Part shown: positions 1-31,534 of the stretch, piece by piece
Position numbering within the stretch: the first letter of the stretch is position 1
How the letters are laid out: each line of letters opens with the position of its first letter
DNA from: Microthyrium microscopicum
Lineage: Eukaryota
Reading direction: 5' to 3'
Assembly: GCA_010405405.1 (NCBI GenBank)
Contig: MU004235.1
Location: 1,440,538 to 1,504,537 of the forward strand
Length of the DNA: 64,000 bases
The notes under the pieces: generated by a model
Databases searched by the model: none
Seen by the model: the letters and a program-made list of their open reading frames with translations, nothing else
What the model was told of the DNA's origin: nothing
Position numbers and translations under genes: made by a program

Positions 1-1700
1 CCAACTCTTGAGGAACTCCCCAAATGGGTTGTTTTGAGCGAAGTCCTGGATGAAATTGAGCGCGACGTATATTTCAATCCAGTTGTAGACGATTCCAGTG
101 GTTCCATTATGATCATGTGCAGCAATCATGAGACGTGCGCCCAACTCAAGGAGTATCTCAAACGCAGACAGCTAGTCGAAGATGCAGAGGACGAGGAATC
201 TGAGCCCCATTTCGCAGCAAGCTTTATGCTGAAGGACAAGCTGCGGAGCTATATCTACTGGAAACGGGCGTTCGCCAAGATGAATGACTCTTTGAAAGCA
301 GATGTCGCGCAATCCATGGAATCGAAAGGCGAAGCTCAGCGCGACGCCCCTCGTCGAGGGCCACCAAACAAGCGGCGAAGAGTCCGCGGCGGCGCGGCTT
401 CTGCTAGTACTGCAAGCCGAATCGAGACTTCGAGGACTGCCGGCGACAAGGAAGCGCATCTGGCCAGCTTGCTTGAAAATGAAGTGCAAGCCGTGGGTGC
501 TGATGGTCTGCCTGAAGAAGAAGTTGTTGTAGATCCGCTAAGCGACAAAGACACATACTTCGAATTGCTCGAGATGCAAGACCTGATTATCGTTCATCCC
601 TATGACGGCGACATCGACGAGCATGCGATTGAAGAAGTGCGCCCGCGCTATGTCATTATGTATGAACCAGAGGCTGCATTCATACGGCGAGTGGAAGTGT
701 ATCGCAGCTCGCATACGGATCGGAATATTCGCGTGTACTTCATGTACTACAAAGACTCCGTGGAGGAGCAGATGTATCTTGCTTCGGTCCGCCGAGAAAA
801 AGATGCATTCACTAAGCTCATCCGCGAGCGAGGAGTAAGTGGCCACAAAAATATGATGATGTTTCGGAGGCTAACGACGCGGCGTAGAACATGGCGATCA
901 CGATTGATAATGCCAAACTTGATCCCGAAGAGGCTTTCTTGAGGACTATCAACACCCGTATTGCAGGTGGCGGCCGAGTAGCTGCTGCCACCGCCGAGCG
1001 GCCTAGAGTTGTGGTCGACACTCGAGAGTTTCGTTCCTCGCTGCCGTCGCTTGTCAACGCGCGTGGAATGGATGTTGTTCCCTGCATGTTGACCGTGGGT
1101 GATTATGTCCTGACGCCAGATATTTGCGTCGAGCGCAAGTCCATCAGTGATTTGATTGGCTCGTTGAACAACGGACGATTGTTTAACCAAGCAGAGACGA
1201 TGCTGGAGCATTACAAATTTCCAATGCTACTGATAGAGTTCGACCAAACGAGAAGCTTCACGCTCGATCCGTTCACTGACTTGTCGGCTGGTCCACAGAG
1301 TGCTTTGTCCTCTGCGCCAGACTTGCAGTCGAAGATTGTGCTTTTGACTCTCGCTTTTCCCCGAATGCGCATCATTTGGTCGAGCTCGCCGTATCAAACG
1401 GCCGAGATTTTCGAGGAGTTGAAAAAGCTGAACGACGAGCCAGATCCGCGCAAAGCTGTGAATATGGGTATACAAGAAGGTGATGATGCGGAGACAGTGC
1501 GTCCATTCAATCAACTTCCCATAGACATGCTTCGAGAGATTCCAGGAATCAACGAGAAGAACATCACTCGACTAAGCTTGGATATTACCAATATCCATGA
1601 GCTGGCGAATTACGAAGAAGACGATATTTGCGCAATGGTAGGTCGTGAAGCTGGTCGCCAGATCTATCGGTTCTTCAACCGAAATATTGGCCGAGACTGA
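1..1700 (+). CDS. RAD1: DNA repair endonuclease XPF/Rad1/MEI-9 (5'-truncated by window edge)
   Basis: ORFs 34..942 and 891..1700 join in frame via intron 835-887 (GTAAGT..CTAAC..TAG). Motifs PRYVIMYEP..FIRRVEVY, VVVDTREFRSSLP, GDYVLT..CVERKS..DLIGSL (ERCC4 nuclease) and a C-terminal HhH. Confidence 0.95.
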
Positions 1701-1789
1701 GCTGTTGGCCGTGTCTAGTGTAATTAGTAATTGTCTAATGAAAGCTGCATGGCCATCTCAGCGTACCGTGAAATTGGTGGGCTGGAACT

Positions 1790-4400
1790 GTAATCTGGAT
1801 TACCCCTTTTCCTAATTAGCACATCTGCCCCATGTCAGTCTTAGTCTTGTTCTTGCGACAAGCGGGCCGACATCAGTATGGTCAACTCGCAAGCAGAGTA
1901 CACATACCTTCCCATTAGAACTGACTGCTTCATTACGGCAATGTAGCCCTCGCGTGCCGATGGGCTTCTAATTCAGGGGCTTGGTCGGTCGCGTAGCGAG
2001 TGAAGTATACGGTCGTGGGAATCGAGCGCGGAGGTTCGGACAAGGACGCGGCGAAGCGAGGGAATGAGGGAACGCGGTATGAAGGCCAATCCAAGCTAAC
2101 CATCCATGCATCACCAAGACTACCAGTATTACCGTTATGAGTTCGGTGAGGGAGAGGGAGAGGGAGGACAGAGCCGGGGTTAGGGCGGTGCTTCGAAAAG
2201 GGGTATTATGAGTCTGCGAAAGTTCAAGTCAAACCAAAGCCTTCTATCTACGCACCTATCGAGAGTTTAGTCTTGTTGTAAGTAGCATGGCCTTGTTTCA
2301 TACTTGCTTGAGCTTTTAGTTATGCGTGCTTCAAGGTTCTAATAAAAACGGTTACTGTCTTTAGCAAAAACTGAAGTCGAAGACTTGTCAGAACGAATTT
2401 GGGGAGCTCTTCAATTTCAAAGTTAGTAAGTGCTGTTGTAAATGCTTGATGTGCTTACTTGAGTCATTCTACCTCATCATACATGGTTATGAGAGAGTCT
2501 CAAACTGCTCTCCGTGCTTGAAGATGTTCGATATCGAGGTAAGGTAATTGAGGAAAGGGATTCGAGGAAGGGTATTCGAGGGAACGGTTTGGAAAAGTAA
2601 ATCGTAATCGGTGCCAAATATCATCCAACCACACCAATATTACCAGTATAAATCGTGCGTCGAGTTCGATCGCGGCTCGGAGGGCTTTCGAAATGGAAGT
2701 TGATCATCCTGCAAACACGTTACGTAGAAACTTGGTATCTGAGCTATAGCTTGATACAAATGTCAGCGGCGAATCAAATCGTCATTCGTACCTTAGACAA
2801 TCGATTACATGTTGCTTGTCTGCTTTTCTGACTTCACGATTTCGGCGGTTACGAGGAAGAGGGAATGGAAGGAATCGCATTTCGGTCGGCCCATCCATCA
2901 AACTCCAGCCTCGCCAGTATTACCAGTATGAAATCGTTCTCGTTCGATCGTGCGGTATCGGTAGGGGTATTTTACTTTGCTGGAACTGTAATACCTCGTG
3001 GTTAATCCATCTTTCTCTTCCACTGCTACTGAAGACTGACAGAGCACTTTAACTTGACGAAAGCATCAGTCGATACGCTCATACTTTTGTCAAAACAATC
3101 GAACTGGATTGCAAGCCTGGGGGTTTCACTTACCGGCTGCGGCTCTTGCTGAGTATTCGCAATGTTGTATGACAACCAAATGTACAACTCTCAATCTGCA
3201 GATGTGACGGTGACGCTCTTGCCTCATTCCAAGCTCTTTTCTTTAGTCAAAAGCTTGAAACGGCTTCAATATGAAGACCTCTGTCACCGGCGTAAGGGTA
3301 GCTTCGAGGGAGGCATTCCAGTCGCTTTTAAAGCGTCTTTGTCCATGCATTTTGTCACATACTATGATCAGTTAGCAAGATGATAAGACCAGGTGAACCA
3401 AACTAGATAAACTCCTTCTTACTAACCTTTGCCTTGAGATGTTATCCTAGGTGGGGCCCACTTGTAGCGACCTCTGTTTCCAAATCTAATCTCATGATTC
3501 TCAAAAAGCACAAGTCCAGGCCAGCTCCGATGGGATTGATTTCCGTAGCTAGAGCATAAGCACTTGACTACACCCTGTAGATACGGCAGGAAATATGAGT
3601 CATTGGCGTCGCGTTCCGTCTTGAAGTGCCATGTAAAGAATCCGTATGCTACGAGGAGGTTGCTTTGAATCGGTTGCAAGGCGCAAACTTTCTTATCCAG
3701 GAGTCGTGAGATCTCTTTCCCATGCTCTTAGATATTTTACAATGGTGGGCCTTTTTGTTGGATTCAATTAGATGCTTTGACGAAAGCGCACTCCGTTTGC
3801 TGTTGAGGACAATTGAACTTTGATTGTTTTTGGCCATTCAGCCACCAACGCAGCCAGTAATACCGCGCTAGTTGCTCCTTGAGAATGTTAATGAATGGTT
3901 ACTAAGGATAAAGTACAACTTGCATTGATATTTGCTGCCAGTCCGTCGATTTTCAAGGCCCCACGTGGGTTTTCTGGTATTGTTTGCCACGGCTTCAATC
4001 CGCAACCAGTGCTGCTGGAACAAATCCGAAGCTTTGTAGTGTCTCTCCGGCGTGTTAATGCTGTTTGCTGGAAGTTTGATGAAATTGTAAGACCTTTTGG
4101 GACGGAGACGGCTGGTGTGAAAGTGAAGCAAGAGTTTGCCGCTGGGTTGTAAAGATTGTTTGCCCCTGAACTCTTTGAAAAAGGTGCACAAAGGTGGCTT
4201 AGAGGCGGAGGAAGGTATGAATGGTAGACTTAAGCATACAGAAGTAGAAACAAAGGGGGTGTTAAGAAGAGAAGAGCACGAAGGCTCATAATAACAAGGC
4301 TGAAGTGTGCATGGGTAGAGAAACAGGGCAGTCAGAGACTGGAGGGAGGAGTTTAGCTTCCAACACCATGGCAATCGTGACCTGGGGACAAAGTTTGCCC
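1790..4400 (-). ncRNA. Putative spliced long non-coding transcript with repeated exonic hairpin modules (ends approximate)
   Basis: Six intron-like segments on the minus strand (about 1825-1907, 2256-2303, 2409-2458, 2744-2791, 3053-3133, 3362-3426), each with GT donor, branch-like motif and AG acceptor. Exons I translated contain stops in all three frames. Pyrimidine-rich leader near 4200-4350. Confidence 0.45.
2058..2950. repeat. Three dispersed ~90-bp modules GAGGGAA...CATCCA...CCARTATTACC (fourth degenerate copy at 3843-3865)
   Basis: Cores at 2123-2133 (CCAGTATTACC), 2634-2655 (CCAATATTACCAGTATAAATCG), 2914-2936 (CCAGTATTACCAGTATGAAATCG) and 3854-3865 (CCAGTAATACCG). GAGGGAA precedes the first three at 2058, 2578 and 2859. 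Confidence 0.8.
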
Positions 4401-5189
4401 CAATCTCGCGCTTCATTCGCTGCTCGCCAAGTCAAAACGGTGGAGCTGCGTGTTTAAATCCTCGGCAATGTCAATTACCAGCCGCATCTACCTCATCACG
4501 TCTACTTTTCAAGACAAAAGCTCCCGCGAGGAAACCTCTCATTTCTAGCTTAACACTCGTTCTATCTACAGAAGCCGGTGCACTTATCAACTACATGCAC
4601 CCACCCAGCCGGCCGCCTTGATTTCCATAAGCATCCCATACTCCTTACCCGCTCCTCGCCTGGCACTCCGTGCTTTTACGACCACGAAGAGACCGAGATA
4701 TACATCCCGACGACAGAAAGCAACGGCCAGCCCACCTTATACCGATATGGAGGATAGGAGGATGCCCCCGATAGCCCGTGGTCAGACGTCAAAACGAGAA
4801 ACCAAGCTTCCGCCCAATGTGAAGGAGTAGAGGAACCAGAAAAACGCAAGACTTTAACTGCTCTGGCCTTGAGAGACTTGCTTACGCTGTCAATCCCAAC
4901 GACTTGATACACTCAAGGCAGCACCACAGGAAGAGGAGAATAACAGGAGTATTCCCATCGAATGCGATGGTACATATCTAATCGGATGGCAGCCGTCGCT
5001 TGCGCGCACCAAGGCCAGCAACTTGGAATATTGGGTTTCGAGAGGCGCTGGAGACATACAAAAGGATGCATAACATACAGATGATGGAGCGGGCTTGATA
5101 GCGGAGCACGATAAACACATGATTTGAAGGCATTGGCAGGTTTAAAGCATGAATTGAATGGTTTATTGGATCTAAGATAACACGAAAAC

Positions 5190-5512
5190 TAAAGCTAATG
5201 GCACAATGAAATGGAATGTTTGCAGAACCGGCGAAGAGGAGCCATGGGGTAAAAGACACTCTTCAATAGGAATTGCAGTTTGATGTAGCACCCTTTAAGT
5301 GAAGATTCCTTGGGAAAGAAAGAATCTTCACCGTAAAGGCGAGATGACTGGCTGGCTGACGAGTTATAGAAACTTGGGTGCATTGTATTCTACTTCGGTC
5401 TTCTCCAAGCACCAGGGTATAGACCAAGATGCAGGAGATGATGAAGAAGTCTGGCGGGCTTAAGAGGAAGAAGAGGAAGAAGAGGAGGAGAGAGGGATCG
5501 AGGGCTTAAATA
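5190..5512 (-). ncRNA. Putative hairpin ncRNA unit, copy 1 (TATTTAA + CT leader + long hairpin)
   Basis: TATTTAA at 5512-5506, CT-rich tract, CAGCCAGCCAGTCATC shared with the 10.3 kb copy, perfect 10-bp inverted repeat 5299-5308/5322-5331 extended by CCTTTA/TAAAGG. Confidence 0.35.
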
Positions 5513-5775
5513 GACAACGCGGAGGATTGTTGATGCGCTAGCACCACGGAACTTGATGGAATTCTGCGCCTGATGACTATTGTCATCATCACAAGGCTTT
5601 CAAAACGCGTCAGTGGTGTTTTGAAAAAAAGAGCGCTCCATCTGCGAGCCTAGACCGAAGGGGCCACCAAATTGGACATTGTGTCTGTCCCCATTTCTCC
5701 CTATTGTAGTTGTGGCTGTGCTTCCTGTGAATATTTGCCCAGAGTCAGAAGTCAGTCAAGTGTCTGAGCCGTAGT

Positions 5776-6135
5776 GGTGGGTTTCAGTCATTTTGGAGCT
5801 CTTGAAGCCACCGAGCGACCTGTATTGAAGCCAGCATAAACATAGAGGTCTGCCATCACTTGAGATGGTAGATATAAGGTAGCCTGTTGTCCTTCAACTG
5901 CGATGAAACTTTAGGCTACTAACGTGGATCGCCTTGCGTGAAGTGTTTGAACAGTGGTGAAAGTGGCTTCCAGTCACTTTGAGGTCTCTTGAAGCTACAG
6001 AGCAACCTTTATTGCAGCCAGCGCAGACAAGAGGTTCAACCATCGCTATTCATGGTAGATAGATGAAATTATATTGCCCATCGAATGCAATGGGACTTGG
6101 AGTTGATAACGTAGATCGCGTTAGATGAAGCGTAA
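5776..6135. repeat. Diverged tandem duplication, period 187 bp
   Basis: CAGTCAYTTT..CTCTTGAAGCYAC.GAGCRACC..TATTG.AGCCAGC..GAGGT..CCATC..ATGGTAGATA..TAACGTRGATCGC occurs twice (palindromes at 5853 and 6040). Confidence 0.85.
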
Positions 6136-7255
6136 TAGACAAATATGACGGAGTCAATCATCTACCTTGACATGAAAATTACTGCATCTTAAAGCTTTTC
6201 ATCTTCGCCCAGCCCTGCCATATATTTCAGCTTAGTAAAAACTGGTTCCAGCGCACTGGAACTTCTGAAAGCGGCGTCCCAACCACATTGAATGCCTATG
6301 CCGTCGTTCTGGTATCGAGGTAGATGTGGATTTAGATCTGATGATTGACGTACACCCAGCATCAGCCCGATAGAAGGACTTTCTGGTGCCCAATCTTATT
6401 CACCGTTGCCAAGCACCAATTCTTCTCTATATAACCCAAAGTCAAGGGTAGATGGCACAGCTATCGACTTTCCGTGATAAACCCAGAGCTCTAACAGCTT
6501 GTCCAGCAACCAGAAGGTCCAATTCCACCTCAGCGACATCTGCTCAGACTCCGAAAGCGCGTCCAGATGGTTTTCGATCACCGTGGACTGAACTTTCGCC
6601 ATGCAGACCTTCCCAAGGACCTTTCAAATACCTCCAAACTGCCCAAGTGCAGAAGCTCAGCGAATGTGGTTGAATCCCGGCCGCCACGCTGCTGTCAGCC
6701 ACATGTCCCCTGGAATCCTTTCCCTGTCTACTCGTGGTTTTCACGCCCCCTAGCCCTCTGAGCCCACAGTTCTTTCCAACTTCTCAACGACCACCGACCA
6801 CATGCCTGTGGCAACCATCGTGAACTGAAGGCAAGAGCTCACTCGTCAAACATCAGAGACAAATCGCGCTAAACTCCTCAAGGCAGGTGTCTACATCAAA
6901 TGATTTTCCAATACAGCTCTGTTGGCGAATACTCAGATCAGTGTTTTGACCGTTCCATAGCTGTAGATAGTTCCACACACAATGTAAAGATACCATAATC
7001 TACAGATAGTTGCTTCGGCATGCCACCAAGTGCCTCGCTTTGTTTTGAATCTAAACGGACTTCCCAGTGTCGAGTTACAGCTCGTTATGTATCGCATCTT
7101 CAAGCCCACAAACCTCATCGGCTGGCAGCAGATTGGCCTGAGAGCCATACAATACACCAAATCAGCGGTATCGTGACTTCCCAGGCACCTTCATTGCCCG
7201 TGACAACACTGCGCTTATCCCCAACAGGAAGGCATTGACATCAATAAGTCGAAGC

Positions 7256-7273
7256 CGGAGTATTGTTGATGCG
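7256..7273 (+). promoter_or_regulatory. CGGAG(T/G)ATTGTTGATGCG motif upstream of a TATA box (second copy 5520-5537; partial copy 10414-10422 on minus)
   Basis: 17/18 identity between 7256-7273 and 5520-5537. All three sit within about 55 bp of a paralogous TATTTAA box. Confidence 0.5.
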
Positions 7274-7308
7274 GTTATTCCGTGCCAAGACTCTTGCCAT
7301 CTGATGGG

Positions 7309-7612
7309 TATTTAACCTTTCGATCCGTCCACTTCTTCCAACTTTCTTCTTCTTCTTCCCACACTAGATAGGTAGATAGTTTAGGTAGCTCGTCTCGACA
7401 ACGCCTTCGCTATCGCCAGTCACGTTCTTGAACAGATTTCGCTAACTTTCTTCTTTTCATAGGTGAGGGGGGAGCATCTGCTCCCTCCTCAAACTATCGG
7501 GCCCGTTACCAGTGTCTTGGACACGAGTCTTCGGACTCGAGAGGCCTTGGGCAAGCCTCTCTCTTTTTTTTTTCATTGCATTCTTTGCCTTGTGCGGAGA
7601 TGTGAGGAAGAA
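7309..7612 (+). ncRNA. Putative structured ncRNA unit, copy 2 (TATA, CT leader, possible intron, four hairpins, T10)
   Basis: TATTTAA 7309-7315, GCTAAC..TAG acceptor 7441-7462, hairpins 7464-7491, 7512-7524, 7525-7538 (cUUCGg loop) and 7539-7561, T10 at 7564-7573. Confidence 0.5.
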
Positions 7613-8491
7613 ATTCCTTTACCATTTGGTGGTCATTATGCTTGATATTATTGGAGTGGGGCTGTGAGAGGCATTGTTTTGATGCGAAGTCATGACTATA
7701 TTGGCAATTGATAGTATCTGAGAGAGGTCTGTGAAGATTCTGTGACCATGAGCTATGTCAGAAGCTGTATATGTTCCTTTTCTATGGTGTTTTGAGACTG
7801 CTCTGGCGGTATTGCGTGTTTGTGGGGTATAATCGGGTGGTGAATATTGGCTCAGTCATTGTGGTCAACGAGCGGGCCAGATTATCGCTACGCTGCCACT
7901 CAATGCGCCCGGATGTTATGTGCATGAGGATGAGAAGCTTTTAATTATGATCGTGTTTATGGTAAATTGCATTATCGCTGGGTATTCTGGTGGTGGAGGT
8001 ACAGTGTCTTCACAGCGATGTTGTTCAAGCAAGCCCAAATTTCTGCCACGCTGCTGACAGCGGCGGCAAAGACGATGTCCCAGCGTACATATAATTCTAC
8101 TTTCATGCTAATTCTTGTGATAATTGGAGCCCGCCAGGCATACGAGGATGGTGGAGGCTCAGTGTTACCACTCCCTCCAGGTGGGCCATAAGAATCGGCA
8201 TTGTCCCAGCGACCACGGTGGCTACCAGCGTATCTTGTGTCTACAGTCCAGTACTGGCCATCTGAAGCGATTTATTATTACCTATCTCATGTAATCAATG
8301 GGCTAGAGCCGCAGTCGAAGGCAGTACGGCGTGCATGGCAGCCAACCAGGTCGCTGGAATACGTCAGTTCTGATGGCCACCCTAAATGTTCCGTTTTTCT
8401 GCCACTTTTCTACCTGTTTACTCCTCCACAACAACACACACTTTCAAGCTTTTCACATTGACCTTACAAATACACCTCCAAGCCCACCAAG

Positions 8492-9720
8492 ATGTCTCCA
8501 ATTAGCATCATTCACCAGCTCCTCGCCGCCATTATGGCGTATTTCACAGGCCTGTTCTTCCAGCTCGCCGTCAACATCCACGGCACCAAGGCCATCAACA
8601 CCATCCTGACCGCCCTCTCTCGAAGTAAGAATACCATTTTCAACCACTTTCCAGCGTTTCCCAGCCATTACGAATTACACCGCGCCTCCCATCGCATTCG
8701 ATGGTCCCCATACGATGCTTTAAACACTCAGTGTTAGGCTTTCCCAAGGCCACGATAGCCAATGTCAGACAATTCCGGGCTTCTGAGCGAGAGAATTTCT
8801 CGAATTACTCGCTTCTACAAGACTTTACCATCGAATCCAATGACTGCCATCGCATTCGATGGTTCCCATATGATTTGTTTGCCATGGCGGCTTATGCTTC
8901 ATTTTGAGCGATTTTCCACATTTCAGCTCCCCTCAGAGGCAGATTTACACGCATTTTGGGCTTCATGGGATATTCTCATCGCTTTAGATGGCTCCCATCG
9001 CACTCGATGGGGCCCGTCGCACTCGCTGGCTGTTTGGCGTATTTTGATAAGAAGCTTGAACTAACATTTTCCAGATGATATTCACATTTCTCAGCTCCGA
9101 AAGGAGCTAAAATCCGTGGTCCGCAGTCAGCCAATGTGGAAATTCGAGGCGTACCGAGCGGCATTTGCAAAGAAGTTGTTCTGTGCATTGCGAATGGAGG
9201 TTTCTTCTCGCCGATTATTGGGAGAAACCATCACTACGAAGTTCTGACATCGTTCAATGGAGGTGGTTTTCTACATCGGCCCCGATGTGATCGACTTCGA
9301 CACGCTTGATACCTTTGCATTGATTGCAGTACTTTTGCCCTGGCTGCTTCGGGCTATGGGTTTACGGTCGCGCGGCTTGATAATCGGTGGGAAAACTCGA
9401 AAATTGGGCTCGGAAAGTGCTAAGTTCTTACAGGATCTATTCTCGAAGTCTGGCCAAAATGGCTGCAGAGGTAAGATTTCCCCTTTTCGAGCCAAATTTC
9501 TCGACAATGAACGATGAAACCGAAAGTACACACTCTCCCATTGCACTCAATGGCTACCATCGAATGCGGTGGGAGATGTACACATCTACTCGGAGAATAC
9601 AGGAACGGCCTATTCAAGGCGTGTTAGCTCTAAAAAATGTTATACTAACTAGTTTCAGCGATGCTTCAGAAGATTTGGTTGAGCAAAACTCTCTTATCTG
9701 CCGTTTTCTTCACGAATTGA
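8492..9720 (+). CDS. Possible orphan hydrophobic protein (~175 aa) with repeat-containing introns
   Basis: ATG 8492 after a CA/CT-rich leader, fungal-like codon use in exon 1, introns 8625-9074 (GTAAGA..CTAAC..CAG), about 9200-9262 (weak signals) and 9471-9658 (GTAAGA..TACTAAC..CAG) preserve a frame to TGA at 9720. No recognisable domain. Confidence 0.3.
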
Positions 9721-10095
9721 CCAGAATCAATGGTCCATTGCGAAGCGAGGTGGGAGCTTACGGAACATTCATGTAGGAATAAGCAAAATGTATCAGCTTA
9801 AATGTAACATAGTGTCCAGCTCTTGAAAGATGTGGACTTTTCAATGAATAGCCGTTTGGCTGGCTGACATGTCACAAGTATTTCTACAACAGCAGTGATA
9901 TGATTGAACTACTCCGCAAGCTTCTCATCTAACACCCACCCTGAAGCGGTCTTCAGCTTTCATCAACAATAGATAGGGTGACCGGGCAGCATAAGTGATA
10001 ACAATAATCCTAGAGAGCAGCATAACAGTAATACGACGTAAATATAATGGGCAGCGGCGGTACCCCTCCGTAGAACGATGAATATGAAAGTTTCC

Positions 10096-10370
10096 CTTCC
10101 TCACAGCTCTGCGCCAGGCAAAGCATGCAATGAAAAAAAAGTGTTTAAGGTCCTGGAATTACCTTCACTCAGATAAGCCAAGTAAGGCAAAACGAGGACC
10201 GCCAGCAAAAAATATCCTCTCCTTGTTCTAGATATGCCAGTCTACTTGATCGACTGACACACCGAGCGTCATAGAGGTGATGACTGGACTGGCTGTGAAA
10301 CCTGTCCCGCCGTTAGCATGGAAGAAGAAGAAAAGATTTGGAAGAAGCGAGGGAAGCAAAAGCTTAAATA
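10096..10370 (-). ncRNA. Putative structured ncRNA unit, copy 3 (inverted paralogue of 7309-7612)
   Basis: TATTTAA 10370-10364, leader CTTCTTCCAAATCTTTTCTTCTTCTTCC, hairpins at about 10148-10200 and 10235-10259, then T8-CATTGCATGCTTTGCCTGGCGCAGAGCTGTGAGGAAG matching 7564-7610. Confidence 0.45.
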
Positions 10371-11936
10371 GACCAAAGGAAAGCCCGGAATAATGTTTCT
10401 GCGATCGGTCCTTAATCCTCCGTTAATAGGCAGCAGAGACGGTTGGCAGGTGACGAGTTTACCGGCAGTATGGGTGTTATTTTGATTGGGAAAGAGCCTT
10501 ATGGGCTCGTCATGGCGCTGAGTAAGAGGCAGGACTATGACGATACTCAGAAGCCATCATCATGACCCGAGCTTCGTGAGTACGGTTCTTTGGTCACAGG
10601 AAGGAGAATGAGATAGCTGAGGGTCTGCTTCTCTACCATTGCATTTGCATAGACACGGCTGTGCGGCGGACAAAAGCGAAGATAGGAATGAATCAATAAG
10701 CTCGCTCAGGATTCTGCGCGAAAACAACACTTTGTAGACAGGCGATGGTTTACAATGGTCTATCAGCTTTCGGAACTGTTATTGATTCAGTTTGAGATGC
10801 GCGCTGTTGCTCTGGCTTGCGTCTCTTGTTCCGACAGCAGCGGCTAAAGAATCAGCGTCACAGTATTTACCGACGGCCATGGTCCTCAAGCTCACGGTAT
10901 CATGAACGGCCACGTCAACAGTTGAGTGCGCTGTCTAGTCTTAGTCGCAATATGTGCATAAGAATCAATGTTAATTCAAATGGCATCATCATTAATGGCA
11001 TTGCGCAAGTGACATCGGCTTTCCGCGCCACAGATTTCAAACCTTCCCAGTATTTCGAGACTAGCGCTACTAAACACATGTCTGGATACGCTGACGACTT
11101 CGTCAATATCCGACCATACAACGGAGGCACCATCAATATCATTAGCTCTACCATCTGCCTACCGTGGACTTTCGTACTGTTTGCCTACGCTACAAGATGC
11201 CTGATAACTGGACAAGAATCGTGGAAGTGACCGTTGTCATCTACATTGGTGAGCTGGTTGGGATGAGACTCTTTAGCTGGCTGTCTTGATCTTCACTTTG
11301 AACAGATTGAAGCGCGGCTAGCCGTCCGTGTTCAACAACTTGTCAACTCGTGTCGAGTGCTATCTTGTCTAGTAGCTTCGCCTATTTGCCAACACCACTC
11401 TAACTTGAAAGACGCGAAAGCAGTTTGATTCACCGACAAACTTTGGTCAGACCCCAATACCGCCTACCCATCAGTCAGGGCACCTTTGATACCGCTGGCG
11501 AGCCTTCCACTGCAAGAGCAGCCAACGCCGCCGTCATACGCTAATGCCATCCGCTGTGTTTGACGAACGAGCGCCAAATAGCCAATCTGCAAAGCAATCG
11601 TGGCTTTCCAATCCATTCTTGAGCTGTGTTCCATTTCCAAGTACTGTGAGATAATCATATAATTCACTGGGCAAAATTGATGAGGTGATGATGCAAATCA
11701 TGGAATTGTAAACACAAAATAGGAGGCGCAAAAAAATGAGCCCGTGCGTTGGAAGTTGGAAAAATGCCAAGACGTACCATGCAAACTCCACGCCACCTCC
11801 GGGTCCGGGCGTTGTATCAGTATCGTCACGATCATAACTTCATGCGCTGCAACTACTCCACGTTCCTTGCTTACAACCTCCTTCAAACTCTAAAAATAGC
11901 TTTCAAGCTTCAATACCAACAACTACAACCTACATT

Positions 11937-12366
11937 ATGAAGCCTGTTGTATCTGCTGGCAATGCCTGGACCTGGTAACTCCTCCTATTCGTCGTGCAGC
12001 ATGAGGTCCGACCCGCTAACAGAGTTGCAGCATCGTGGTCTCGGTCTTTGCTATCGTCATTCTCTCGATACTCGGATCGATGTTCAAGGTATGTAGCTTG
12101 AGAGACCATTCAAGCTTGAGCTTTGCTAATGTCTCACCTCCGCAGAACGGTCATCATACAGTCATGGGCTCGACAGAAGACCCGGTTGACGGCGCAGCCG
12201 TAGCGGGTACCATCTTCGGAGCAGTATTTGTCTACATTGTAAGCTTCACCTTATAACCACACTAAGCGTTGGTACTAACGATCAACAGGGATTCCTGGTA
12301 TTCTGCGCCTCTCAAGCGTTCCTACACATGCGCGAAAGCCGCCGCGGGGCGATAGCCTTATCATAA
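11937..12366 (+). CDS. V-ATPase V0 subunit f / RNase kappa family small two-TM protein
   Basis: Exons 11937-11974, 12031-12088, 12146-12238 and 12289-12366 give MKPVVSAGNAWTCIVVSVFAIVILSILGSMFKNGHHTVMGSTEDPVDGAAVAGTIFGAVFVYIGFLVFCASQAFLHMRESRRGAIALS, resembling yeast YPR170W-B. Confidence 0.88.
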
Positions 12367-12594
12367 TGGATGATTAGCAGTTTTTAGCATTAGGGACCAG
12401 TTGGTTCCTTCACGAACCAGGTGTACGGCGCTTTGTTTACTCTGCGTTGCCAACAGGGGAGTTGTACGAATTTGGCTTTACACGTGTAGCTTCAGCAAAA
12501 CAATGCACATAATCTTGAATGTCCTTTATGTTTTCAATATGTTTTCTTGTTCATACTCACTTTACAGGTTCATGAGTTACTAATACAGATTGAA

Positions 12595-14388
12595 TTACTC
12601 CTCGTCCGTGGAGTCATCGAGGTCAGGCAGCATCTTGGACATATATGGTCCATCCAGCCAATACCCCAAACGCGCATAGTAGCTTCTCACACCGACGCCA
12701 CTGATGACAGATATCTTACTGCTACCATGCTCATCCCTAGCAATTCGCTCCGCCTCTTCCATCAGCAACGTTCCAAACCCTTGGTGTTGAAACTTCTTTG
12801 GATCGCGCGCATGCACTGGCACAGCAGTTCCATACACATGCAATTCACGAACCAAACTTGTCGGTTGTCCTGTCAGCTCAGGGCGGAAGGTGTGTGTCGT
12901 GCTGCACTTCCGCAGTCTTAGCAGTGCGATCAGGATATCCTGCTTTGGGTCCTCGTAGGCCAAGAATGTCTCCCAGCCGCCATTTGCTGCATAATCTCTT
13001 CGCACCAACTCGACCTGCGACGGCCGTATCTTGTGCTTCACCTCGTTGATGCCTACTTCTCGCGTCCGCACGTCTCGGCATGTTGTGCCAAAGTCCTTCA
13101 TGCGGGCTAGCGCTAGCTCACGCAGATTGCCGTTCTCTACGCCGGATGTGACTAGAGGCATGGGAATATCACGCTGGACACGATAAATGCGCGTCCATGG
13201 AGGAATGAGAGCTAGGATGCGAGCCACTATGTCGATGAGCGCATTGGGTGTGTAGTTCTTGTACCGACCGGTCCGCCAAAGCTCGTAGAGACCAGTTCCA
13301 CGTATCACAAGAGTGGGATAGATTTTGAGACCGTCCGTCCGGAAGTCGGGATTCTCAAAGTACTCACGGAATTGATCCAAGTCCCGCTCCATACCCACAT
13401 TCGGCAAATCGGGCATCATATGAGATACAACTTTGAAGCCAGCATCTTTGGCCAACTTGAACGTTTCCGCAACAGCAGCAACTGTATGGCCACGGTTGGT
13501 ATCTCGGGCGACATCTTCATAGAGCGATTGGACGCCGATTTCGAGACGAGTGCAGCCATATCTCAGCATGGCCGATAGATGTTGGTCCAGACAATAGTCT
13601 GGCCGCGTTTCGATGGTAATGCCCACGCATTTGATGTCGCTCTGTTCTCCTGCGCTGACTGCTTCGTCGACATTGGTTGTGCAGTAGCCGGAGAGCGCAT
13701 TATGTAGCTGAGCTATGAACTCATCTCTATAGCTCTCTGGCAATGACATGAATGTGCCGCCCATAATGATGTACTCTACTTTATCGACGGAGTGGCCCAG
13801 TGATTTGATTTGGTCCACCCGACCTCGAGCTTGCTCAAACGGATCATATCGAGCTCGGATGGCTCTCATGGATGTTGGTTCGTAGCCTGTATATGACTGT
13901 GTCGAGTATTCAAAGTCTGAGTCTGGGCCACCGGGACAATACACACATATGTTCCCCGTGTAGGAAATATGTGGACATCTATGTGGTTTGCACATCACGG
14001 CTACCACAGCTATTCCAGACGACGTTCCTAATTCTCGTCAGCACGAATCATGAAGACGGGGAAAAGCACGGTATACGTATAACATACTGATTGGTTTTGC
14101 TATCAACTTTGGCAGGATATATTTCTTATAGTGCTCTGGTACTGCCGCGATAATCGCTGTCAAAGGCGGCAGCGAAGCCAGATAGTGTTTCTTTGCGATT
14201 TGGCCACGAAGAGAGTTAAGATTGATATCTTTCTTTGGTCCAGATCCATTTACTTGCTCCTCATAGTCTTGGATTAGAGCGCTGGCTATGTCTGCGCATG
14301 CGCGCATATACCGTTCATTTTCTGGAGCCAGTTTATGGCCCTTTGGCATCCGCCTTTGGCGGGTTGCTGTGGCCGTAACCGTAGCCAT
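12595..14388 (-). CDS. ELP3: Elongator complex catalytic subunit (radical SAM + acetyltransferase)
   Basis: Intron 14028-14087 restores [23 protein letters not shown]. Also [22 protein letters not shown] and GVGVRSYY motifs. Confidence 0.98.
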
Positions 14389-14693
14389 GATGGCTGAACC
14401 CCAAATCAGATCTTGCTTATGGATTTTCAAAATGCGAACTGTGGCTGTACTTTCAGATTAAAATTGAAGGTTTTGGTGATTCCAAAACCAAAGTCACAAA
14501 AAATGTGGCGGAAATAAGCGGACGGCGCGCCAAGACCAGCGCTAGTCCTGGAAACAGATCTCCGCCTTGAGCTCCTCAAGCTCTTTCGTTCTACCATAAG
14601 TTTCTCGAATCCATTGCTCGCCCATCTACCCTATTTCCTCTCTTCTTCTCTTCAATCCTGCGTTAGAGCGCTCTTGCAAACTTCGCGCTCACG

Positions 14694-15889
14694 ATGCAGG
14701 CATTTCGGCGTCCAATACAGAGTGGATTGCGACAAGTAATCCGCTCCAGGGGATACGCAAGCTCATCCTCTCCATACGCCTCGACAAACAAGAATCTGCG
14801 CATCAGTGGAGACACTAAGGTGCTATTTCAAGGTTTTACTGGAAAGCAAGGCTCGTGAGTACTATCCAATCGCGATTCGTGATGAAATGCGCTAATCGCC
14901 CCGTTCGCAGATTTCACGCGGAGCAAGCCATCGAATACGGTACTTTATCTCGTTAGTCCCCGAATGACGAGGAAACTAAAGCTTCATAGGCACAAATGTT
15001 ATCGGTGGTACAAATCCCAAGAAAGCTAGCACTGAGCATCTCGGTAAACCGGTTTTCGCGACTGTGAAGGAAGCTCGGGAAAAGACTGGCGCAAATGCAT
15101 CAGCTATCTTCGTTCCGTATGTTGAGATAAGTCGGATAAGAGGATAAACACTGATTTCTGGGCCACAGTCCACCACTAGCGGCAAAGAGTATTGAGGAGG
15201 CTATCGAGGCGGAGATGCCATTGGTCGTCTGGTGAGTTTGAGATTTGAGGTGCTGATAGGAGAGTTAACAAAACAATAGCATCACTGAGGGCATCCCTCA
15301 ACACGACATGGTCAGAATCACCGATATGCTCAAAACACAGGACAAGACACGTTTAGTAGGACCCAACTGCCCAGGTATCATCGCTCCGGGGCAATGCAAG
15401 ATCGGTATCATGCCAGGCTTCATCCACAAGCGTGGTCGTATTGGAATTGTCTCTCGGTCAGGAACTCTTACATACGAGGCCGTCAATCAAACAACACAAG
15501 CAGGCCTCGGCCAATCTCTCGTCGTTGGTATTGGTGGTGATCCATTCAGCGGAACCAACTTCATCGACTGCCTCGACGTCTTCCTGAAAGACAAGGAGAC
15601 CGACGGAATCATCATGATTGGTGAAATCGGTGGCAGCGCCGAGGAAGATGCCGCCGACTTCTTGAAAGAGTACAACACCGCCAACAAGCCAGTCGTCAGC
15701 TTCATCGCCGGTATCTCTGCTCCTCCAGGCCGGAGAATGGGACACGCTGGTGCCATTATCAGCGGTGGAAAGGGTGGCGCTGACTCCAAGATTGCTGCAT
15801 TGGAAGCTGCTGGTGTGCTTGTTGAGCGCAGCCCGGCAGGTCTTGGAAAGAGACTGCATGCTGAGTTCGTTAAACGTGACATGATATAG
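14694..15889 (+). CDS. LSC1: Succinyl-CoA ligase alpha subunit, mitochondrial
   Basis: Multi-exon 5' part ([25 protein letters not shown]), [21 protein letters not shown] and active-site RRMGHAGAI. Confidence 0.97.
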
Positions 15890-16029
15890 ATTGGTTTGGA
15901 TGGATCAGTAGCGAGTAATGTGGGACGCTTGAGCGTCGTGTGTTCCACTAGGCGTGTTTGTTGAAGGCTTTGATACTTGTTTTATATACAATTCAATTCC
16001 GATGTGCATTTCACTTGACCTCCCCTTGG

Positions 16030-18073
16030 CTACCGTAGAACAACCTTGCGCCACCGTGGTCCAGGATCCAAACAAGTCTCCAAGACCTCTTTTCGCAACT
16101 CGACGATGCCCCTTCGTTCTGCGATCCCATTTTCATTACATACTAACAGTAAAGCCATAAAATCATTGTCTTTTGCTGCGATCAGCGCAAATGTTCCAAT
16201 CTCCGGAACTGGGTCTAGTTTCATATCTGTTCCCAGTCGCCCGCAGTCCAAGCCGGTTCTATCTCGTGCACAGAGATATGTCGTACGGCTGCTCTGCTGT
16301 ATAATGCGCTCCAGATTAAGGTTCAGGATGACGGTGTTGAAGTGTAAGAGTGGGTACGGTGAACTGTTGAGACTGAGATTACCCATGTCCAACTCATATG
16401 TAGCTATGTTGATATCCCTAAACTCTTGGGGCCCCTGAGCACGACTTTCCTCCACTGAGATTGGAGAAGATGCTGCGTGAGTGCCATCGTCGTTTATATC
16501 AACGACAGTAGAGATGTCCTGGTCGATTAGTCGATATTGATACGTTATCCAATGTCGAAGTGTGGAATCTAGAGCTGATTGACCGTAATCGCGGACTGGT
16601 TCTTCATGTTCGACTCCAGAGTAGTCCGCGACATATTTCCAGCCAGCCCACGAATAGCTTGGTAGTCCCTCGCGTCTCGGATTGACGATAGCGGGTGCAA
16701 AATCAGCTGCCTCAAAGAGCATCGATCGAGAGAGCGGCAATGGTAATCCTTGAAAAGTGCCAACACCAGATAGTAAGTGGAACTTATTGAGCATACCCTG
16801 GGCAGCGCGCAGCGCGTCGCTCTCATATGAGAATTGTCGGTAGCCATAATACATGATGAGAGTAGAGAAGTCTGTAAACTCGACGTGTCCTCTCATCAAA
16901 ACCTCGTAAAGTGAGGCAGAGTGATTGAAACCAACAAGCTGATGGTCTGGGGCATTCATTGCCTCGCTGTATAAATTTCTCTGGCATTTGAAGTAGACTT
17001 GATTGTTGATGAAAACGAGCATCCGATTAGACAGTATCTCTTCTTGCATGCTATGTGAATCACTATTAGTTCAGACTGGGTAGAAGCAATTCATTATCTA
17101 CTTACGTCCACGCTCGTTTGGAGTAAGCGCTTCGTCTCAAAAGCGTCTGCATATCCACGATGGTTGTCAGATGAAGCCCAGGAGCAACCTCTCTAGTCAA
17201 TCGCTTATGGTCGCGTGGAGTGGGGAACACTCCAGGTAGCCCAGAATAAGCGTCGCCTGTGGCTGCTACAATAGTGAGAATCGATCTCTCGTAATAGTAG
17301 TCCATGTTTTCGCAACATCTCTGCAGTTCATCCTCATCATCTTGCACTAGACACAAGCTATCAACCCAAAGATATCGTTCGCCAAGTTGATGTACGACTG
17401 ACATGGCGTCTTGCACTGTAGGTGGGATAAAGCCTCTACATGTCGCCAGCGCACCAGGGGTCATCAATTGCCCTGCGTTCGACTTTTCCAACAACAACCT
17501 GCTACTGTTATGACTTCCCCACACGTAGGACAGCGCAAGATATGCCAGACGAGGAACATCCATCGGGTTTACTTCAACAATGCACATCGCTTCAACATCA
17601 ATAAATCGAAATGCGATATCTTGAATATGTGGTCGACGAGTCGAATGTTCCCGCGGAGGCATACATTCGCTCGAGATATGCTCGGCTTCACAGGTTCTCA
17701 ACCACCGACTAACATCTCTGAAGTCTACCCACTTGTCTAATTCAGGCCTCGCTCTTAATAAATCCGATTCACCAAGCTCTGCGAGTACAACCCACGAGCC
17801 CAACGGAGAACATGACGCGTTGAAGCCATCTGCCGGCCCCCACTGGACCTGAACAAGCCTATCGTCACTGGGTGGCTTGTAGGCAGACATTGAGTCCAAA
17901 CCATCGACGCAAATGGAAGCAATCAACTCACAGAAGGGGCAGTCTCTTTGACGCAAATCGCCAAAAGTGCCGTATGCCCATGATCGGTCCCCGGAATATG
18001 TCCCATTGATCATACATTGCAGCTGAGGCTCGAGCGGCAGCTTCATGCAGTATCTGCAAAGAGGCCGCACCAT
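16030..18073 (-). CDS. HET-domain (heterokaryon incompatibility) protein
   Basis: YLALSYVWG, ERYLWVDSLCLVQDD, MDYYYERSILTIVAA and (across intron 17051-17105) RAWTMQEE. C-terminal PSYSWAGW. Start codon uncertain. Confidence 0.92.
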
Positions 18074-18312
18074 AGCTTCTTGTTGTGCATTCGAGATGAG
18101 AAAACCCTCAACCTGATCGTAGTAATTGATGAGAAGGGGAGCTTGCATCGCGTTGGAGATGTGGTTGCTTACAAGTAGGTTCGCGCTTAACCTAATCGGG
18201 CGCGTCTCGATCTCCCGCATCTCGAGCTTGAGGTTGAGCTCACAAGCTGGCCAGACCTCCATCGCCTAAATATCGCCATGAACGACCATTTCACATCTCC
18301 TCCACTATCACG

Positions 18313-19729
18313 ATGATATCCGGCATCCTAATCTTCAATCAAAAAGGGGAAAACCTCATCTTCCGCTCCTTCAGATCCGACTGCCGCCCGCGGCTGGCCG
18401 ACATATTCCGCATCCAAGTAATATCGAATTCCCAAGTTCGCTCGCCGATTCTCACACTCGGAAGCACGACTTTCAGCCATACGCGTCATGAAAACATATA
18501 CCTAGTGGCCGTGACTAAGAGCAATGCGAACGCCGCGCTGGTATTCGAGTTCTTGGAGCGGTTGCGCTCGTTGGGGAAGGCGTACTTCAACAAGTTCGAT
18601 GAGGAGAGCGTGAAGAACAACTTCGTGCTGGTCTATGAACTTCTCGATGAGATATTAGACTTTGGATATCCGCAGAACACGGAGACGGAGTCGCTGAAGA
18701 CGTACATTACGACAGAGGGAGTGCGGTCGGAGAGAAAAATGCCAGTATGTGCTTCGCAAAAGTTATTGGCAATATGTTACTAATGAAGTTACAGGAGGAT
18801 ACTTCAAAAATCACAATGCAAGCTACAGGCGCTCAGTCGTGGCGGCGAGCAGACATCAAACATCGCAAGAACGAGGCATTCGTCGACGTTATCGAAGATG
18901 TCAACCTCCTCCTCTCCTCATCAGGCACAGTCCTTCGTGCAGATGTCAACGGTCAGATAGTTATGCGCGCATACCTTTCTGGCACACCAGAATGCAAGTT
19001 TGGATTGAACGACCGATTAACGCTAGGCGAAGATAATATCGCGCCTCCAACTAACAATCGGCTGGGAACGAAGGCAACGCGAGCGGCAGCTGGTTCAGTA
19101 GCGCTGGAGGACTGCCAATTTCATCAATGTGTGAAGCTAGGCAAGTTTGATGCCGAGAGAATCATCACTTTTGTGCCGCCAGATGGTGAATTCGAGCTGA
19201 TGCGTTATCGAGCCACGGAGAACATCAATTTGCCATTCAAGGTGCATGCGATTGTCAACGAGGTCAACAAGTCCAAAGTCAACTACAGCATTGCCATCCG
19301 TGCAAACTATGCGCAGAAGCTCTTTGCTACCAATGTGGTCGTTCGGATACCGACACCACTCAACACAGCACGAATCACCGAGCGTGTGTCGCAAGGAAAA
19401 GCCAAGTATGAACCAGAACAAAACAACATTGTCTGGAAAGTGCAGCGATTTTCAGGTGGAGCCGAAGTCATTTTGAATGCAGAGGCGACTCTGACATCGA
19501 TGACAAACTACAAAGCTTGGTCTCGTCCACCCATCAGTATGAGCTTCAGCCTTCTCATGTTCACGAGCTCGGGTCTGCTTGTTCGATATTTGAAAGTGTT
19601 TGAAAAGAACAACTACAGTTCTGTGAAATGGGTGCGATACATGACCCGAGCAGGAAATTATGAAATACGGTAAGCTTCTCCCCGAAGCAGATGGATGCTT
19701 TTGACTAACATTCTGCTTGAAGATTCTAA
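18313..19729 (+). CDS. APM4: AP-2 adaptor complex subunit mu
   Basis: MISGILIFNQKGENLI, NFVLVYELLDEILDFGYPQ, FVPPDGEFELMRY, KWVRYMTRAG.YEIRF. Two introns (about 18745-18794 and 19670-19722). Confidence 0.97.
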
Positions 19730-20474
19730 AGTCCTTGCACAAGGCATTCAAAAGATACACCTGTTTATGAGCGTAGGGACTTGCATATGAGCTGCATTGT
19801 AATGGTGTTGGGCTGCTAATGTTTCTCCCCTTGTAAATATCGCATCCTTAAGCGAGAATTGAGCACATGTTTGTTGTGCTTGAACGTTCAATGATGGTTG
19901 GTGCTACTCCTCGTATCGATTAATAGGCAGAAACAAAAGCAGGAAAGATCCCAGTTTTCCTTGGCTGTACAAGCGAGTGATTCTTGACCTCGTATTCCTT
20001 TCAGAATCGTCAGGAGAAAGCTACAGCATCTTGAAACAAGATCTTCTTTTTGAGATTGCATGCTCGTGGGCTCGTTTTGTGAAAGTCATTAGTGGTAACC
20101 TCGAATAAGGCAAAATCCGCACTCGTCATTGGCGAATTATTCAATTGGCTCGGTGGGTGAAGTCTGCCTTGCTATCCCGATTTAGCATCGCCAAGTGGTG
20201 ATCTCAAGAGGTGCATGTGGTGGCTGAGTCTCCAATCAAGGAAACCCGCGACTCCATCATGACCCTTTTGAAATATTTTGAATTTCAATAGCTACTTCAT
20301 TCTCACGTTCTACTATGCTTCTGGCCGAATCGACCACTCACTGGTGATACATACTCCCTGCTGGTCAGTCGAGTTTCCCTCGAATGTATGACCAAGCTCG
20401 CAACCACATCTTTCCTCTTTTCGGAAGAAGAATGCAGCAACGATAGGTGGTGATATCGTCATATCAAACAAATC

Positions 20475-30456: not shown

Positions 30457-30907
30457 CAGGTCAACGTGAATCGTGATTGAAAGCGGACTTTGAGATGCCT
30501 AGGCTTGCTGTCAGCGGGCCATTGCTTCATTCAGCCCGCGGTTCTTTTGGATTTGTTCATCGTTGTTGTTTAACTCATACATAAACAAAGACAGGCGACC
30601 TTCGAGGCGACGAGGATAGACTTCGTCCTAAAGGAGCCTAGCGAAGAAAATGCATGAGTCAGCGACCGCGCTAGGCTCAAAGCGGTGGCTTACACGCGAG
30701 TTTGGAGGTTGCATGACAGCAAAGCGTGGGTGACTATTGTGGCGGGGTTCCATGGTCACTACTTGGGCACCATCAACCCATATTAAAGCATTTGATCCTT
30801 CGTCCTTCTTTCTTCACAACACACACTCTCTCCCTCCACAAATTCCCACCGAACAAACATCGCTCCATTCGCACTAGACCACTAAAAACTTACTTGCAAA
30901 CGACAAT

Positions 30908-31534
30908 ATGCCTAAGAACAAGGGAAAAGTGCGCACTCCCTACCCCACATCTTCGGGATCATCTACTAACGCGATGAACAGGGTGGTAAGAATCGGCGTA
31001 GAGGAAAGAACGAAAACGACAACGAGAAACGCGAACTGGTCTTCAAAGAAGATGGACAAGGTACACACCCCTCATGTCACGAACCCATATATCCGTCACT
31101 AACGTTGGGCACAGAGTACGCCCAAGTCGTAAAGATGTTGGGCAACGGTCGCCTAGACGCAAAATGCTTCGATGGTGTCTCGCGTCTCGCACATATTCGC
31201 GGCAAACTACGAAAGAAGGTGTGGATAAACCAGGGCGACATCATTCTACTGTACGTACCATTACGTCCCTCTGTGTCACCTCGAACCTGCGAACCCGGCT
31301 AACCATTAATCCACTAGATCCCTTCGAGAGTATCAAGACGATAAGGGTGATGTGCTCATGAAGTACTCCGCAGACGAAGCCCGTTCCCTAAAAGCCTATG
31401 GCGAACTACCCGAAAATACCCGTATCAACGAGACCGACACATATGGCGAGGAGAACGCCGAAGGCGCCGGATTCGAGTTCGACGAGGATCGTAGTGGATC
31501 CGAGGAGAGCGACGTCGAGATTGACGACATCTAG
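30908..31534 (+). CDS. TIF11: Translation initiation factor eIF1A
   Basis: [43 protein letters not shown], acidic tail ending DIDDI-like. Three introns. Confidence 0.98.

Follow-up and report, generated by a model that had tools for sequence, protein, structure and literature searches.

Do three short TATA-led elements in the genome of Microthyrium microscopicum belong to a family of structured RNA genes, and which parts of them have been conserved? The question is raised by a 64-kb stretch of contig MU004235.1 (hereafter the window; all coordinates refer to it), in which an initial annotation had placed three paralogous units, here called A, B and C, starting at 5512 (−), 7309 (+) and 10370 (−). 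Each was described as a TATTTAA box with a CTT-rich leader and a variable, structured middle. The units were interpreted as genes that RNA polymerase III (Pol III) transcribes and that end at an oligo-T run or, alternatively, as old terminal inverted repeats (TIRs). The analysis reported here identifies B and C as a genuine noncoding pair with conserved ends and assigns A a looser relationship to them. Two predicted features are new: an 18-nucleotide (nt) motif upstream of all three units, and the inclusion of the T-run in a conserved hairpin.

Units B and C are paralogous

The TATTTAA heptamer and the CTT-rich leader were present at all three positions, with at least 84% pyrimidine over 45 nt. 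A repeat search of positions 4000-12000 distinguished two segments common to B and C: a 51-nt head pair (7309-7359 and 10320-10370; 78% identity) and a 45-nt tail pair (7566-7610 and 10096-10140; 89% identity, 40/45 positions), the latter confirming the ~45-nt common tail reported previously. Self-BLAST of the entire window revealed five repeat pairs, two of which were the B/C tail (E 7e-9) and the B/C head (E 5e-4).

Global alignment of whole units, compared with shuffled sequences, gave z-scores of 12.5 for B-C, 6.6 for A-C and 2.2 for A-B. The middles of B and C share 97 of 207 columns (z 0.97), which is the level of shuffled sequences, so divergence within the units is strongly non-uniform. 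At the sequence level, the alignment scores together with middles that retain no residual similarity identify B and C as true paralogous noncoding units with conserved ends and very uneven conservation. In local alignments of the middles, the A-C and A-B scores were reached by 13% and 12% of shuffles, respectively. Two short blocks that had been cited as links of A to the other units were found, namely TCGATCC after the TATA box in A and B, and CAGCCAG(T)CCAGTCATC in A and C. The latter block lies ~154 nt from the TATA box in A and ~75 nt in C, and it is not above chance, since the local alignment was matched by 13% of shuffles.

No open reading frame (ORF) common to the units was detected on either strand, in agreement with the initial annotation. 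Unit B lacks an ATG in 7309-7598, and downstream of both tail hairpins (see below) only very short ORFs are present. The strong stem-loops described earlier were also recovered, as whole units fold better than their shuffles (z −4.5 for B, −4.15 for C and −3.0 for A). In a sliding fold scan of positions 3000-10125, the segment containing unit B was the strongest outlier on both strands, while C was an outlier on its own strand.

The sequence CCAGTCAY occurs on the unit strand of all three units (5343-5356, 7416-7424 and 10282-10298) at differing distances from the TATA box. In unit C the opposite strand reads GUGAUGA at this site, similar to the C box of small nucleolar RNAs (snoRNAs); a matching D box was not seen there.

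A conserved strand-specific hairpin at the tail

Folded alone, the tails of B (7564-7614, + strand) and C (10092-10140, − strand) each form one unbranched hairpin that uses nearly the whole segment. In both, GGAAGRRAA serves as the partner of the T-run, with an inner helix that closes the 5-nt loop; the stem comprises 19-20 base pairs (bp) interrupted by 1-nt bulges. The fold is specific for one strand. On the unit strand the minimum free energy (MFE) is −15.2 kcal/mol for B (z −2.9) and −17.8 kcal/mol for C (z −2.1), compared with −2.6 (z +0.7) and −7.7 kcal/mol (z −0.2) on the reverse strand, where 14/19 (B) and 13/19 (C) of the pairs are standard. In both units the folding strand corresponds to the direction of the promoter, and the strand asymmetry ranks within the top 0.17% and 1.4% of 51-nt segments.

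In the B/C alignment all 38 cells of the 19 pairs are paired, compared with 55-71% when the partners were slid. There is one compensatory change (U-A in B, G-C in C) and there are three U-A/U-G changes; the remaining differences fall in the loop or outside the stem, and therefore all eight are structure-neutral. When eight substitutions were introduced at random, all 19 pairs were kept in 0.11% and 0.09% of 100,000 trials, and in 0.16% when the mutants carried the observed four transitions and four transversions. The differences are distributed unequally between the arms, with one in the 5′ arm and four in the 3′ arm. A covariance model of the hairpin, run unfiltered over the window, recovered only B (E 7e-18) and C (E 1.5e-16), the next match having an E-value of 0.82. 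Unit A has no comparable tail hairpin (fold z +0.9).

These features bear on the role of the T-run, previously regarded as the end of a Pol III transcript. The conserved block continues for 37-41 nt beyond the T-run and the 3′ arm of the hairpin lies downstream of it; a transcript ending at the T-run would therefore lose the conserved structure. As judged from this arrangement, the T-run, which forms the 5′ arm of a conserved strand-specific hairpin, is probably not a terminator. A conserved GTGAGG, which is a possible 5′ splice site, lies in the 3′ arm of both hairpins. Screening of the window for targets of putative hairpin-derived small RNAs yielded only the antisense of the hairpins themselves. 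A metagenome scan with a 22-letter tail pattern retrieved three loci, none of which extends the tail past the pattern, and these were therefore considered chance matches.

The heads resemble a Pol II core promoter

In the mould promoters described in PMC9703631, RNA polymerase II (Pol II) transcription depends on a TATA box together with a pyrimidine-rich tract before the start site, both of which are needed for full activity. With both strands counted, the window has four sites at which at least 75% pyrimidine over 45 nt follows a TATA-like heptamer, and three of these elements are the heads of the units. The remaining one, at 30781, is located 127 nt 5′ of the ATG of the eIF1A gene (30781-31535; Pfam eIF-1a, E 8.5e-18), whose TATTAAA and pyrimidine-tract promoter was used as a control. 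Since the eIF1A promoter shows the same architecture, a TATA box with a CTT-rich leader is no signature of a special RNA class.

Ungapped comparison over 51 nt from the TATA box gave 40 identities for B-C, 27 for A-B and 21 for A-C, and the eIF1A promoter shares 25, 22 and 20 positions with A, B and C, respectively. The head of A is thereby no closer to those of B and C than to the eIF1A promoter, and that promoter also contains TTTGATCC, a near-copy of the TCGATCC common to A and B. The TATA box and CTT-rich leader alone do not link A to B and C. The proposal of three paralogous units consequently holds for the pair B-C only, the likeness of A being at the promoter level.

Analogous elements have been dissected in the Penicillium xylP promoter, in which mutation of the TATA box left 8% and mutation of the pyrimidine tract 22% of the activity (PMC9703631). 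Like xylP and eIF1A, the units have a TATA-like heptamer ahead of a tract of 45-55 nt with 84-91% pyrimidine; unlike these promoters, they precede no coding sequence and all three have a private upstream 18-nt motif. The heads of A, B and C are predicted to be ordinary Pol II-type core promoters of a filamentous fungus. A passage on "CT-rich" sequence in PMC12857756 concerns a plant 5′ untranslated region and is irrelevant to this question.

An 18-nt motif upstream of all three units

The 300-nt regions upstream of the units are unrelated, apart from one short motif. The sequences CGGAGGATTGTTGATGCG (5520-5537, unit A) and CGGAGTATTGTTGATGCG (7256-7273, unit B) are identical at 17/18 positions, a match that was not equalled when the 300-nt upstream regions were shuffled 200 times. 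A degenerate pattern derived post hoc, CGGANTANTGTTNNTGCG, has three matches in the window with no more than one mismatch, compared with 0.00 expected, and all three stand 7-35 nt upstream of the TATA boxes of A, B and C. Every copy is on the + strand; seen from its unit, the motif of B is therefore inverted with respect to those of A and C. Zinc-cluster transcription factors typically use CGG-containing sites. The distribution of the 18-nt motif suggests a candidate regulatory site that ties A to B and C. The features of the units are summarized in Table 1.

Table 1. Predicted features of units A, B and C (window coordinates).
Feature	Position	Strand	Remarks
Unit A	5512-5190	−	Head and body; without tail hairpin
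Unit B	7309-7614	+	Head, middle and tail hairpin
Unit C	10370-10092	−	Head, middle and tail hairpin
Upstream 18-nt motif of A	5520..5537	+	CGG...GCG type; 7 nt from TATA; 1 mismatch to the degenerate pattern
Upstream 18-nt motif of B	7256..7273	+	35 nt from TATA
Upstream 18-nt motif of C	10386..10403	+	15 nt from TATA; 0 mismatches; 14/18 to the B copy (hand count)
Head of A	5451..5512	−	TATTTAA at 5506-5512 and pyrimidine tract; 91% pyrimidine over 45 nt
Head of B	7309..7360	+	TATTTAA at 7309-7315 and pyrimidine tract at 7316-7360; 87% pyrimidine
Head of C	10318..10370	−	TATTTAA at 10364-10370 and pyrimidine tract
Body of A	5190..5450	−	10-bp perfect stem at 5299-5331; without the conserved tail hairpin
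Middle of B	7361..7563	+	Hairpin-rich; similarity to the A or C middles not detectable
Middle of C	10143..10317	−	Hairpin-rich; unalignable with B and A
Tail of B, 51-nt hairpin	7564..7614	+	5′ arm composed of a T10 run and CATTGCATTCTTTGC; loop CTTGT; purine-rich 3′ arm
Tail of C, same hairpin	10092..10142	−	Identified by fold, alignment and covariance model

RNA-derived contigs and a possible further copy of the hairpin

Contigs of one RNA library (a public run, designated X1) cover part of the stretch. They skip the GT..AG introns of the flanking genes and show no differences to the window; they are therefore RNA-derived and come from the same organism. Two loose ends were found at the tail of unit B, one contig of 255 letters at each: at 7564 the contig is unlike the sequence before this position, and at 7614 it is unlike the sequence behind it. 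These limits coincide with the base of the hairpin, and it appears that one transcribed contig from another locus carries just the 51-nt hairpin. Further loose ends, at 8688, 8847 and 8994, imply that short palindromes of the region (described below) are also dispersed. Among the pieces listed, no contig is native to A, B or C, and several bins in 2669-11339 have zero depth; this coverage pattern gives no evidence either way on expression of the units.

Searches for known RNA classes and mobile elements

An Rfam scan of positions 4000-12000, evaluated by E-value, produced six matches (best E 0.089), all with at most 25.8 bits compared with gathering thresholds of 35-84, and none of them on a head or a tail. 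A known small nuclear RNA (snRNA) or snoRNA family, an outcome that the initial annotation had envisaged, did not emerge from this search. No tRNA was found in 4000-12000. In all, 34 A-box and eight B-box near-consensus matches were located in the window, and none of either lies inside a unit. A type 2 Pol III gene and a tRNA-derived short interspersed nuclear element (SINE) are not supported, there being no A or B box in the units and no tRNA in the region.

By eye, no target-site duplication was seen outside 7309 and 10370 or around the hairpins, the flanks sharing at most 2 nt. Inverted repeats between head and tail within a unit were not found either (lowest shuffle fraction 0.056, for a 9-nt CT match). 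A TIR DNA transposon or miniature inverted-repeat transposable element (MITE) is not supported, in view of the missing target-site duplication, transposase and intra-unit inverted repeat and of the one-strand hairpin. A long inverted duplication comprising B and C was rejected as well, the arms being similar only in the head, the tail and the palindromes. For a solo long terminal repeat (LTR), a TG precedes each TATA box, but inspection by eye showed neither a corresponding inverted end on the 3′ side nor duplication of the flanks; end signatures of LTRs and Helitrons were not seen by eye.

Comparison with introner-like elements, for which we used PMC4457414, was also negative: B and C start with TATTTAA, GT...AG ends are not present in all copies in either orientation, and the units lie in no recognised gene. 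Read on the reverse strand, the head would encode a C-terminus rich in K and R, closed by a TAA stop, and the tail an N-terminal M..LPH.SA.GK.CNEKK. Coding on this strand was rejected, as the reading frames are only 15-40 codons long, the middles are dissimilar, and the substitutions show no third-position bias (by eye).

Functional interpretation and alternative explanations

Because conservation is so uneven, promoter and hairpin have the same orientation in both copies, and the substitutions preserve pairing, we tentatively favour, with somewhat less than even confidence, the view that B and C are short Pol II-type noncoding transcription units in which the hairpin is the selected part. They would represent two inward-facing paralogous copies of a unit composed of four parts: a sequence-specific upstream motif; a TATA box and pyrimidine tract acting as a Pol II-type core promoter; a hairpin-rich transcript of ~175-200 nt free of constraint; and a selectively maintained 51-nt RNA hairpin on the same strand, with the T-run as its 5′ arm. 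The hairpin would be the functional module, most likely a substrate for an RNase III/Dicer-type enzyme, whose cleavage may either define the 3′ end of the transcript or release a small RNA out of the 5′ arm, which is U-rich and the better conserved of the two. It would also be present in at least one other transcript encoded elsewhere in the genome. Unit A may be a third promoter of the same regulatory type, which has lost the hairpin or never had it. The sequence data show the relationships among the units, the one-strand fold and the pairing-preserving substitutions; transcription from these promoters, the polymerase involved and the processing of the hairpin are what we infer from them. The structured-RNA gene family proposed in the initial annotation would thereby be retained as far as B and C are paralogous, noncoding and outside known RNA families, and abandoned as regards Pol III.

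If this reading is correct, the locus would hold a hairpin-RNA gene that is compact and duplicated, has a recognisable promoter and displays a compensatory change between its paralogues. Conservation supports few of the fungal hairpin-RNA loci. Further genes of this kind could then be sought in the assembly with the covariance model and the upstream motif. A wider proposition is unlikely to hold in full, namely that a lineage-specific modular family of hairpin-RNA genes exists in this Dothideomycete, itself little studied, combining a shared CGG-type upstream site with a strong TATA/pyrimidine promoter for short noncoding transcripts, in which only the 51-nt G-U-rich hairpin is selected, and that this hairpin, also carried by other transcripts, gives rise to a small U-rich RNA or is a signal for RNase III processing or for termination.

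Several observations weigh against hairpin-bearing transcription units. For these, neither the start or end of a transcript nor a small RNA has been seen. The hairpin is represented by two sequences only, and since its structure was derived from the same two sequences, the column-shuffle control (249/500) is uninformative. Its stability is only within the top 4.4% (B) and 1.4% (C) of 51-nt segments, and the energy-based mutation test is weak, as mutants of B equal C in fold stability in 1.8% and mutants of C equal B in 16% of cases. When whole units are folded together with the pyrimidine tract, it is this tract and not the T-run that the purine-rich 3′ arm pairs with. All of the G-U pairs could have arisen if an old perfect palindrome underwent C-to-T mutation biased towards one strand. 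The likeness of the B and C heads reflects in part generic promoter composition, and the third copy of the hairpin is deduced from the two rows of loose ends, not from the piece itself.

The two arms of the hairpin invite comparison with fungal microRNA and microRNA-like RNA (mi/milRNA) loci. The foldback, which is unbranched, has only small bulges and no large internal loop and ends in a loop of 5 nt, reaches the structural minimum given in PMC9757828, and one arm is better conserved, as in such loci; the hairpin is short (51 nt), and class membership requires small-RNA reads of defined size on the arms, seen in replicates (PMC9757828). The main text of that re-analysis (Johnson et al. 2022) does not name Dothideomycetes.

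RNase III (Rnt1/Pac1) hairpins define the 3′ ends of yeast Pol II snRNA and snoRNA transcripts. The favoured units resemble these, purely by analogy, in having a conserved stem-loop downstream of a short noncoding transcript with a variable body. They differ in that the loops are CUUGU (B) and CUGGC (C), not AGNN, and that the bodies have no snRNA or snoRNA features and no Rfam match.

Among the alternatives, the one that survives best, although we consider it doubtful, is that the units are neutral relics in a stretch pieced together by old local duplications, with B and C left from one inverted duplication whose ends were preserved by chance, gene conversion or low mutability, with no function. 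Other decayed duplications (5755-6133 and 8769-9015) and a cluster of short palindromes in the same stretch are in keeping with this, as are the lack of any ORF of the stretch at the Pfam cut-off and of relatives for the putative exon between B and C (see below). A neutral origin accounts poorly for the contrast, within a 300-nt unit, between a tail with 89% identity and a middle no more alike than shuffles, and for pairing that is preserved at all eight tail differences. It also leaves aside the same upstream motif at all three TATA and pyrimidine elements and the apparent recurrence of the hairpin at another, transcribed locus. If the units were only a relic, the finding would be ordinary.

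Remains of a mobile element appear improbable; 7309-10370 would then be an old element with ~300-nt TIRs, or the hairpin a tiny MITE- or SINE-like repeat. Non-autonomous DNA elements typically have conserved termini and unrelated middles. B and C share this layout with TIR transposons and MITEs, since they are inverted, their similarity begins at the outer ends (outer 51 nt, 78%), their interiors are unrelated, and the short hairpin block is apparently dispersed, with a copy in another sequence context. Against this stand the absence of a visible target-site duplication at 7309, 10370 or the hairpins, the absence of a transposase or any other domain above the cut-off in the 65 ORFs of 4549-11230, the lack of arm similarity past head, tail and palindromes, and the lack of an inverted repeat within a unit. 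The covariance model finds only two copies in 64 kb. The hairpin folds on one strand only, which counts against a mobile element because a foldback at the DNA level would be symmetric. The old terminal inverted repeats of the initial annotation find no support in this combination of results.

Still less probable is that the heads are promoters, and the units long 5′ leaders, of unannotated coding or small-ORF genes, the hairpin being a regulatory element of the leader and the exons lying further downstream. In its favour, the promoter architecture is that of an mRNA gene, and the GTGAGG in both hairpin 3′ arms is a possible 5′ splice site. This explanation is countered by the absence of a shared ORF, by the ATG-free 7309-7598 of unit B and the very short ORFs past the hairpins, by the lack of a Pfam match, and by the absence, in either reverse-strand reading, of a third-position excess among the head and tail substitutions (by eye).

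The Neurospora crassa milR-1 gene, a precedent cited correctly in the initial annotation, has TATA-like elements and is transcribed by Pol III without an A or B box (PMC3547838). The units share with milR-1-type genes an intergenic noncoding hairpin locus, a TATA-like element and a T-run; they differ by a T-run inside the conserved hairpin, which cannot both terminate and pair, and by an mRNA-like promoter. An oligo-T lying 250 nt past a TATA box does not suffice to make a Pol III unit, and here the oligo-T is half of a stem. It is very unlikely that the units are Pol III genes for ~230-260-nt structured RNAs, despite the TATA box at a fixed position, the T8-10 run 230-257 nt downstream and the structured bodies, as the conserved block passes the T-run by 37-41 nt and pairs with it through structure-preserving changes, the head is of the eIF1A mRNA promoter type, A-box-like (0/34) and B-box-like (0/8) sequences, tRNA and Rfam families are missing from the units, and unit A has no T-run tail.

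Genomic setting of the units

Long ORFs of the window carry HET, Fungal_trans_2, ERCC4, Elp3-type radical SAM/GNAT, INO80-type SNF2 and GH3 domains, and the source of the DNA is a filamentous ascomycete. One ORF of 371 amino acids (aa) is 100% identical to a hypothetical protein of M. microscopicum; its next relative is only 36% identical, so there is no close genome for comparison. Among the listed titles of publications that contain the species name, none is on repeats or noncoding RNA, and nothing in print on the units was found.

Units A, B and C are located in a gene-poor stretch of ~4.4-11.3 kb, between the ERCC4 gene and a small spliced gene adjoining Elp3. Positions 4000-12500 contain 91 ORFs of at least 50 aa, the longest within 4549-11230 having 144 aa. 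None of the 65 ORFs of 4549-11230 reached the Pfam cut-off, and six ORF products had no exact match in the protein collection searched. A possible four-exon orphan gene was distinguished by eye on the + strand at 8493-9776, with an ATG at 8493, GTAAGA donors and CTAAC branch sites. Its putative exon 9248-9517, between B and C, has no relatives among 1.84 billion representative proteins and no Pfam match, so 8493-9776 may not be a gene.

Short palindromes of one family, CCATCGAATGCGATGG, with a 6-bp stem and a 4-nt loop, are clustered in the same stretch. Allowing up to three mismatches, 16 strand-matches at ~10 sites were found in the window, compared with 0.76 expected, all of them in 4955-9572. 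Several fall within the would-be long introns of the putative orphan gene, and a 19-nt tandem array at 8987-9031 is built from this palindrome. These sequences may be a candidate binding site, a tiny repeat or introner-like debris. One variant has the 10-mer CATTGCATTC in common with the 5′ arm of the tail hairpin, and the clustered palindromes could be elements related to the hairpin or its targets. Perfect 8-bp hairpins are not enriched in the region, with 17 in the whole window and three in 4000-12000.

Decayed duplications were also identified. Between units A and B there is a tandem duplication (5755-5946 and 5938-6133; 196 nt, 69% identity, E 1e-23), each copy of which has a CAGTCAY motif (TCAGTCAT and CCAGTCAC) and a degenerate palindrome. 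A direct duplication (8769-8867 and 8918-9015; 99 nt, 64%) lies between B and C. The only other repeats of the window are found far from the units, at 63222-63273 and 62818-62869 (83%) and at 63224-63316 and 62775-62867 (72%).

The small gene beyond unit C lies on the + strand at 11340-12673 and contains three 50-57-nt GT..AG introns (11973-12030, 12086-12144 and 12238-12289). It is covered by the RNA contigs with the greatest depth figures over positions 1-20000.

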